Shown here in pieces: positions 9,185 through 9,452 of a stretch of 64,000 nucleotides of DNA. This DNA is from Vulcanimicrobiota bacterium. Its GTDB lineage: Bacteria > Vulcanimicrobiota > Xenobia > Xenobiales > JADMJV01. The notes under the pieces are model-generated. The model saw only the letters and a program-made list of their open reading frames with translations. It did no database searches and was not told the DNA's origin. The stretch spans positions 14,510-78,509 of the forward strand of contig JBJHCR010000001.1 of NCBI GenBank assembly GCA_050486105.1, in the 5' to 3' direction. Every line of letters starts with the position of its first letter. The first letter of the stretch is position 1. The position numbers were made by a program, and so were the translations under genes.

Positions 9185-9452
9185 GCCGTCCCCCCTGGAC
9201 AATTTCTGTCCCCCCGCCCTAAAGAACAGTGCATGCCTCGACCCCCTGGACAGCAGGATGGACATCTCAGAAGAAACGCTGACCCCCCCTACTGGACGGC
9301 GGGGGTGGACAGGCGGGTGGACATTTCGGACAAACGCCGCCCACACTGGACGGCAGGGGTGGACAGGCGGGTGGACATTTCGGACAAACGCCGTCCCCAC
9401 TGGACGGCAGGGGTGGACAGGCGGGTAGACATCTCGAACAAACGCCGCCCCC
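9185..9452. repeat. Tandem array of 54-bp direct repeats (three full units at 9291-9452 plus two degenerate units upstream), each carrying two TGGACA hexamers
   Basis: Units at 9291-9344, 9345-9398 and 9399-9452 are >90% identical. There are no spacers, so it is not CRISPR. It lies in the divergent intergenic region between the HTH gene and the lptC-like operon. Confidence 0.85.

Follow-up and report, generated by a model that had tools for sequence, protein, structure and literature searches.

The intergenic region between a gene for a 237-amino-acid helix-turn-helix (HTH) protein and the divergently transcribed lptC, lptB and lptF/G genes for lipopolysaccharide (LPS) export in a Vulcanimicrobiota bacterium carries an array of 54-bp tandem repeats. 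The array was analyzed within a 64,000-nucleotide stretch of contig JBJHCR010000001.1 (positions 14,510–78,509), hereafter the window, and all coordinates refer to that window. We propose, with a probability of about 0.5, that the array is a recent, lineage-specific amplification of a conserved box and serves as a multi-site platform, likely for the adjacent winged-helix protein. A preliminary description of this DNA had suggested that the region could be a protein-binding array within a divergent regulatory region, made up of either iterons or response-regulator sites, or else a hypervariable minisatellite. Our analysis favors a binding array in general and speaks against both of its specific identifications.

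Structure of the array

The array lies within a 414-bp gap (9127–9540) that separates the HTH gene on the minus strand from lptC-lptB-lptF/G on the plus strand. Tandem Repeats Finder delimits it at 9286–9455 (period 54, 3.1 copies, 92 per cent matches, no indels) with a score of 291, the highest in the window. Gap-free repeat finding agrees, placing the starts of the units at 9287, 9341 and 9395, and the three near-identical units reported earlier are thus real. Pairwise identity among them is 49–50 of 54 positions (91–93 per cent), and units 1 and 2 share a stretch of 38 nt that is exactly identical. The units follow one another head to tail at a constant period, and because they abut without spacers, the array is not a CRISPR (clustered regularly interspaced short palindromic repeats), as had been recognized. 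Two degenerate units had also been reported. One of them was recovered as a partial unit (76–82 per cent identity over 25 and 17 nt, with a 5-bp indel and a spacing of 59), whereas the other (9185–9232) shares only a core of 16–17 nt with the units and, judging from related loci, appears to be a conserved promoter-proximal operator and not a decayed repeat.

The interior of the unit differs from the initial account of two TGGACA hexamers 11 bp apart. Such hexamers are paired in units 1 and 2, whereas unit 3 has one TGGACA and one TAGACA; paired hexamers are 12 bp apart from start to start, with a 6-bp gap; and there are four GGAC sites per unit, at offsets 0, 13, 25 and 34, instead of two sites. 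Unit 3 has lost two of these sites, its second hexamer being TAGACA and its fourth site GAACA. Exact TGGACA occurs eight times between 9196 and 9419, always on the plus strand. On that strand, the 414-bp intergenic region contains 13 GGAC sites against 1.9 expected (Poisson P ~9e-8), and when units 2 and 3 are omitted as non-independent copies, 7 sites remain against 0.96 expected (P ~7e-5). Counting both strands gives 16 sites, 13 of them on one strand. In any other 300-bp stretch of the window, GGACA/TGTCC is found at most four times.

A conserved putative operator upstream of the HTH gene

We collected ~30 orthologous loci for comparison. The 54-bp array is in none of them, the closest relative having 71 per cent protein identity. 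Instead, relatives share a footprint that reads TGTCC-N5-GGAC(A/G)GCAGGA on the sense strand of the HTH gene, in a spacer that is otherwise unalignable and varies from ~130 to 495 bp in length. The footprint is followed by TTGAAT, ~16 nt, TAGAAT, AAGGAG and the start codon; the TTGAAT-N16-TAGAAT part, which lies in the leader and core promoter region, is degenerate in the genome studied here. The element GTCC-N5-GGAC(A/G)GCAGGA is near-invariant and located ~55–65 nt ahead of the start codon of the HTH gene. Within an alignment of 11 orthologous upstream regions (A3), GTC and GCAGGA are invariant. A wider listing of 26 upstream regions, spanning protein identities of 33–100 per cent, has GCAGGA in 24, mostly after GGAC(A/G), and homologs of 33–47 per cent identity are among them. 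With the window left out, the top k-mer is ACAGCAGGA, present in 14–15 of 19 intergenic regions. The corresponding operator of the window (9181–9218) includes the only GGACA-N5-TGTCC palindrome in the 64 kb.

Throughout the Eremiobacterota, boxes that consist of a G-run followed by (T)GGAC(A/G) are also present upstream of the HTH gene, most often in the form GGGGGACAG. In six loci with another gene between the HTH gene and lptC, the boxes remain beside the HTH gene, and they track the HTH gene rather than lptC. Separately, we observed that a gene inserted between the HTH gene and lptC in loci L004, L007, L018–L020, L023 and L029 encodes a protein of ~200–213 amino acids beginning with MNVQ(N/S)(F/Y)YP, for which no Pfam family is on record.

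The 54-bp unit resembles this operator region in several respects. On the HTH sense strand, the proximal element reads ATTGTCCAGGGGGGACGGCAGGA (complement of 9181–9203) and the unit junction reads GCCGTCCAGTGGGGACGGCGT (complement of 9388–9408). In the core GTCCAGnGGGGACGGC, whose orientation is the same in both, 15 of 16 bases agree (GTCCAGtGGGGACGGC at the junction versus GTCCAGgGGGGACGGC). In addition, 9182–9191 is complementary to the unit-junction 10-mer at all 10 positions, and the palindrome at the junction is neater than the proximal one. Outside the junction, the unit has two boxes of the G-run-TGGACA type (GGCAGGGGTGGACAGG and GGCGGGTGGACATT) and one GGACA that no G-run precedes; these are variants of the G-run-GGAC(A/G)G box of related spacers. 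Each unit adds a further operator core: one well-preserved copy has become three, and unit 1 has an additional, decayed copy at its 5′ edge. Most boxes are directed at lptC, and the super-period of 54 bp corresponds to ~five helical turns. The paired TGGACA hexamers thus make up no more than a portion of the unit, and the array is a multiplied operator region.

The likeness to the boxes of relatives was quantified with a weight matrix built from 69 GGAC sites of relatives' spacers only (consensus G-rich-TGGACAG), in which the flanks alone were scored. The window has 588 GGAC sites, and of the 14 with the highest flank scores, 9 fall in the spacer between the HTH gene and lptC (Mann-Whitney P 8e-9, or 1e-5 without units 2 and 3). 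The same spacer, which makes up 0.65 per cent of the window length, holds 7 of the window's 28 G-run boxes.

Multiplied boxes in other lineages

Several relatives have multiplied boxes in their own spacers. In loci L020 (2341–2417) and L038, the orthologous spacer contains a 23-bp tandem of three units (GGGGAGGGGGGACGGCGTCTTCC), and a decayed 23-bp tandem of ~three units is present in L009. Within the 23-bp lineage, six assemblies (L032–L037) that represent two protein variants (four and two assemblies) have two box units each, and the two assemblies of another variant (L038 and L020) have four. The count of box units is thus constant inside a lineage and changes only from one lineage to another, which argues for retention, although this stability does not prove that the three young 54-bp units are important. 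Locus L031 has five G-run boxes, all facing lptC, without a tandem repeat. Locus L008 has four GGACA-N3-TGTCC palindromes and 13 half-sites in 450 bp, and L005 and L027 have 11 and 9 half-sites, respectively. Across the four long spacers with an adjacent lptC, 18 G-run boxes point toward lptC and 4 away from it. Box density in relatives' spacers is 2.4–3.8 per 100 bp, compared to a background of 0.3–0.45. Boxes have multiplied independently in several lineages, each in its own way.

For the 54-bp array itself, a search of the sequence collections for close strains in which units could be counted found none beyond one Logan contig. This contig, from SRR31311414, belongs to the same strain and is identical across the locus except for a clean deletion of 54 bp, leaving two units instead of three. 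Logan assemblies are made with k=31. The exact repeat of 38 nt exceeds that length, and the one-unit gap is therefore best explained by assembly. The copy number in the metagenome-assembled genome may likewise be a minimum.

The neighboring protein and its predicted winged helix

The 237-amino-acid protein has 83 homologs, labeled, where their sources name them, as Candidatus Eremiobacterota, Vulcanimicrobiota or Candidatus Xenobia, with some others (e.g. uncultured Burkholderiales). Its gene is divergent from lptC in 16 of the related loci examined (among L003–L038), and the protein represents a phylum-wide uncharacterized family. In an AlphaFold2 model computed from a 37-sequence alignment, residues 1–55 form a strand-helix-helix-hairpin-helix domain with predicted local distance difference test (pLDDT) values of 93–96. 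This domain is followed by an acidic low-confidence linker (56–117), a long helix or coiled coil (118–200) and a hydrophobic C-terminal helix (213–236) that is predicted to be transmembrane. The N-terminal winged helix modeled on its own has a pLDDT of 90.8.

Foldseek matched this domain to the excisionase (Xis) of Mycobacteriophage Pukovnik (4j2n; template modeling [TM] score of 0.74, root-mean-square deviation of 1.8 Å), BldC (6amk and 6ama; TM 0.64–0.73), RacA (5i44; TM 0.52), RdfS (8dgl; TM 0.48) and MtaN of the MerR family (1r8d; target TM 0.38, which is low because the target is longer). Probabilities were 0.9–1.0 with E-values of 0.05–0.1, as expected for a domain of only 52 residues. 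Sequence searches with the HTH family returned only chance coiled-coil matches from the PDB and none from NCBIfam. The adjacent gene product is thus predicted to have an Xis/MerR-like winged helix, the fold sought as a partner for a direct-repeat operator array. Residues S15–K22, located in the second (recognition) helix, are invariant in the family, a conservation that parallels the invariant DNA core.

Proposed mechanism and alternative explanations

If the array is an amplified operator for its neighbor, the Xis/BldC/MerR-type winged helix of the 237-amino-acid protein would bind the boxes. Dimerization through the long helix, together with the flexible 60-residue linker, could place several heads on neighboring boxes and make binding cooperative. 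A larger number of operators would lower the apparent dissociation constant, as in excisionase-type proteins, and the amplified array would hold more protein at a lower concentration. The proximal element would provide autoregulation of the HTH gene, while the distal boxes, arranged at the 54-bp super-period, would recruit further copies and raise occupancy across the ~270 bp between the promoters. The likely outcome would be that the HTH gene autoregulates more tightly, that the lptC-lptB-lptF/G promoter comes under control, or both. Were this explanation correct, it would supply a regulator together with its operator in a phylum where genetics hardly exists, a probable way into the control of LPS-export genes there, and a natural case in which operator number is tuned via tandem duplication. 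As a cis-regulatory feature the repeat is fairly ordinary, and the protein is the more interesting half of the pair.

Several observations weigh against this explanation. The link between protein and boxes is drawn from their co-occurrence and from the predicted fold type, the Foldseek E-values are only 0.05–0.1, and the HTH_17 match of 20 bits is under the Pfam cut-off of 27. When compared with direct sites ~10–11 bp apart, the GGAC spacings of 13, 12, 9 and 20 bp give no clean helical phase, and the box is rich in GC, in contrast to the sites of BldC. It is possible that the invariant GCAGGA belongs to a promoter and not to an operator, and the units carry GCAGGG or GCGGGG but no GCAGGA. A promoter for lptC could not be defined by the promoter scan. 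Finally, an array that is in none of the relatives found and whose units are 91–93 per cent identical is young and could be functionally neutral.

This last point leads to the main rival, a young minisatellite in which replication slippage copied a 54-bp piece of the operator-containing spacer, the extra boxes being passengers that leave expression unchanged. We consider neutral duplication possible but doubtful. It fits everything except the recurrent, retained multiplicity in relatives: the high identity of the units implies a recent origin, the 54-bp array is missing from every relative found, the Logan contig of the same strain is one unit shorter, and unit 3 is already losing sites. However, at least three other lineages enlarged their sets of boxes independently and in different ways, the lineage with the 23-bp tandem has the same copy number across independent assemblies, and a gap of one unit is what a k=31 assembler would yield from an exact repeat of 38 nt. 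It is less probable still that some other regulator, encoded elsewhere and perhaps of the OmpR/PhoB type, binds the boxes, with the HTH gene only its regulated target. The pho box consists of CTGTCAT direct repeats with an 11-bp period, and the direct-repeat layout with 12–13-bp spacing and the resemblance of the complement CTGTCCA to half of that box would agree with such a regulator; conservation upstream of the HTH gene would fit control by any factor. Yet the flanking genes scanned contain no response-regulator or histidine-kinase domain, the box follows the HTH gene even when lptC is not adjacent, and no other box cluster in the 64 kb is conserved in relatives. Moreover, box and HTH gene co-occur down to 33 per cent protein identity, where an invariant recognition helix accompanies an invariant core. 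For these reasons, the response-regulator array suggested in the preliminary description is not supported.

The remaining alternatives assign the repeats a role other than that of an operator. A structured RNA built from the repeats, whether a small RNA or an extended 5′ leader on the lpt transcript, appears very improbable. The proximal box can pair with each unit through complementary arms of 10–12 nt, and the minimum free energy is slightly under that of shuffled sequences on both strands (z of -2.0 and -1.7), but these weak scores are explained by the palindromic boxes. The window has no Rfam match at gathering score (in 9000–9700, searched with E up to 10, matches have E of at least 2), no terminator was found, and because the boxes persist in relatives with changed order and spacing, no common RNA fold is possible. 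Nor did a search of the array for G-quadruplex patterns, allowing loops of up to 12 nt, find any. We give even less credence to a replication repeat, whether iterons of a plasmid or phage origin or a DnaA-box cluster. The consensus of the high-GC DnaA box is TTGTCCACA, which TGTCCAC resembles. Direct repeats do exist here, and GTGGACA fits 7 of 9 bases of the DnaA box, but 9127–9540 has no site within one mismatch of TTRTCCACA, and likewise none for TTATCCACA or TTGTCCACA; the usual GGGGGACAG of relatives is further from a DnaA box. The window contains no rep, dnaA, dnaN or phage genes and no turn in GC skew, and chromosomal contigs as long as 3.9 Mb show the same synteny; with neither a rep gene nor a plasmid context, the proposed iterons fall away. 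Least credible of all is a repetitive peptide. Open reading frames (ORFs) span the array on both strands (8996–9460 on the plus strand; 9170–9490 and 9267–9599 on the minus strand), but they have no Pfam match and overlap either the HTH gene in antisense or the start of lptC, and the orthologous spacer, given its variable length, has no conserved frame.

A more elaborate possibility, which we regard as a long shot, is that the protein is a tail-anchored, RacA-like tether between DNA and membrane and that the box array is its loading site. Occupancy of the boxes would then dock the LPS-export promoter at the inner membrane, where LptB, LptF, LptG and LptC assemble, and the condition of the envelope would thereby be linked to the position or expression of the locus, with lineages tuning occupancy by box amplification.

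Gene neighborhood and other features of the window

The features of the locus are listed in Table 1. The preliminary description had named an lptC-like/lptB/lptFG operon; lptC and lptB are indeed there, but only a single gene of the LptF/LptG family follows, not two. A scan of the array region detected no usable promoter on either side and no terminator. A motif downstream of the array, AAAGCGGGATAC, has a counterpart, AACGGGAATA, ~30–40 nt upstream of lptC in the loci where that gene is directly adjacent (L005, L008 and L031); this correspondence was seen by eye. In relatives, GAGTTTCTTTT precedes the AACGGGAATA motif. Motifs of this type may belong to the promoter or the leader of the lpt genes. 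A sigma-54 or extracytoplasmic function-type promoter at GCAGGA was considered by eye only; its spacing is inconsistent between clades, and it counts as no more than a lead.

Table 1. Coordinates of the array, the operator and the flanking genes within the window.
Feature	Position	Strand	Remarks
Gene for the 237-amino-acid HTH protein	8413–9126	-	HTH_17, 20 bits (cut-off 27)
Leader and core promoter region of the HTH gene	9127–9180	-	Ribosome-binding site AAGGAG (complement of 9134–9139)
Promoter-proximal operator	9181–9218	-	HTH sense strand GGCGGGGGGACAGAAATTGTCCAGGGGGGACGGCAGGA, with GTCC-N5-GGACGGCAGGA inside
Degenerate partial unit	9247–9286	+	Two TGGACA (9247, 9259); gap-free repeat finding
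54-bp unit 1	9287–9340	+	GGAC at 9294, 9307, 9319, 9328
54-bp unit 2	9341–9394	+	GGAC at 9348, 9361, 9373, 9382
54-bp unit 3 and first 7 nt of next unit	9395–9455	+	GGAC at 9402, 9415
Unit-junction palindrome GCCGTCC-N5-GGACGGC	9390–9408, also 9336–9354		Inverted and direct repeats
Motif AAAGCGGGATAC	9503–9514	+	~30–40 nt upstream of lptC, downstream of array; by eye
lptC-like lipoprotein gene	9541–10173	+	Pfam 1.6e-12; TIGR04409 1e-16
lptB	10170–10949	+	TIGR04406, 339 bits (cut-off 240)
lptF/G-family permease gene, single	10949–12064	+	Pfam 8e-81

The rest of the window is ordinary chromosome, with two SecA paralogs, kinases, transporters and a CHAT protein. The first SecA paralog (24944–28510, plus strand) has 1188 amino acids, including a low-complexity N-terminal extension of ~200 residues, and does not contain the SEC-C motif that is present in the second (42488–45163, plus strand). 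Homologs of the first paralog with ~1100–1140 amino acids are common among the database matches, a few of which carry the label Eremiobacterota or Vulcanimicrobiota. The DNA encoding its N-terminal extension contains inverted G-run-TGGACA boxes (25124 and 25159) and CTGTCCAGGGGGAC (25086). The boxes at 25124/25159 form a second high-scoring cluster, which we rejected: two orthologous SecA loci have 0 and 1 boxes and contain neither this pair nor CTGTCCAGGGGGAC, and we therefore took the cluster as chance or lineage-specific.

Two other repeats were noted. A 38-bp tandem repeat at 23834–23934 (2.6 copies, 82 per cent matches) has GTCCCCGCCGGGAC hairpins and a CA-rich body and lies in a stretch of ~1.5 kb without a convincing gene, upstream of a Uma2-family nuclease domain. 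Kinship of this repeat (GTCCCCGCCGGGAC) with the 54-bp unit was considered and rejected, as 70 of 300 shuffles reach its score. A 69-bp tandem duplication (36207–36344; 2.0 copies, 97 per cent matches) is located just downstream of the ORF at 35550–36140. At 7657–8160 (plus strand), the precomputed annotation of the Logan contig records PF26390 (MamS_MamX) on a product of 148 amino acids; our Pfam scan of the 167-amino-acid ORF at this position gave no match at E up to 0.01. ARAGORN reported a tRNA-Asp of 95 nt with anticodon ATC at 52484–52578 (minus strand), inside an ORF of 943 amino acids (51089–53920). The prediction is probably a false positive, because Rfam, at gathering score, has no tRNA match anywhere in the window.

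Comparison with known systems

Plasmid iterons, too, are direct repeats in tandem, expected to titrate a DNA-binding protein whose gene lies beside them. However, the unit here measures 54 bp, compared to ~17–22 bp in iterons, and is accompanied by neither Rep, an AT-rich unwinding element nor a DnaA box. The pho boxes of OmpR/PhoB-type regulators share with the array direct repeats spaced by about one helical turn, and CTGTCCA loosely resembles CTGTCAT. They differ in that the period here is 12–13 bp, there is no response regulator nearby, and the box tracks the HTH gene and not genes of a phosphate or envelope regulon.

In its overall architecture, the protein can be set beside RacA of Bacillus subtilis, which consists of a winged helix, a disordered linker and a coiled coil, recognizes GC-rich sites that occur in clusters, and tethers DNA to the membrane (PMC4914108). 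The AlphaFold2 model predicts the same domain order, with a divergent linker (40–60 residues in RacA), and a far protein end at the membrane. In both systems, the sites (ram in B. subtilis) are GC-rich, partly palindromic and clustered. Unlike the protein studied here, which is predicted to have its own membrane helix, RacA is anchored via DivIVA; its ram site is TGACGCCGGCGTCA; and it has no link to lpt genes. Dispersed clusters of the RacA type were not found either, as the 64-kb window has one conserved cluster, compared to 25 site regions over ~600 kb near the origin in B. subtilis.

BldC of Streptomyces, which matches the fold, forms head-to-tail multimers on direct repeats of variable number (PMC5859096), and the number of direct-repeat sites also varies in our loci. 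In contrast, BldC has 68 residues and no other domains, its repeats are AT-rich (AATT-N4-C), and there is no detectable sequence similarity.

The arrays bound by recombination directionality factors and excisionases (Apl of phage 186, Xis of lambda and Pukovnik) share with this locus an Xis fold, here predicted, and short sites of the same orientation between two promoters. Their operators are direct repeats about one helical turn apart, with weak single sites and cooperative neighbors, and in phage 186, Apl binds its operators cooperatively between two promoters, pR and pL (PMC7498355). Unlike these arrays, the locus examined here is chromosomal and of housekeeping type, with neither an integrase nor an attachment site; its boxes are GC-rich and irregularly spaced inside a 54-bp super-repeat. 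Excisionases also lack the disordered linker, long helix and membrane anchor, all three of which are predicted for the protein encoded beside the array. In excisionase-type proteins, apparent affinity rises with operator number (PMC7498355), and given that this holds for Apl, tandem amplification would have an obvious functional consequence. On the explanation favored here, the array is a set of operators multiplied through tandem duplication, a familiar type of element in an unstudied phylum.

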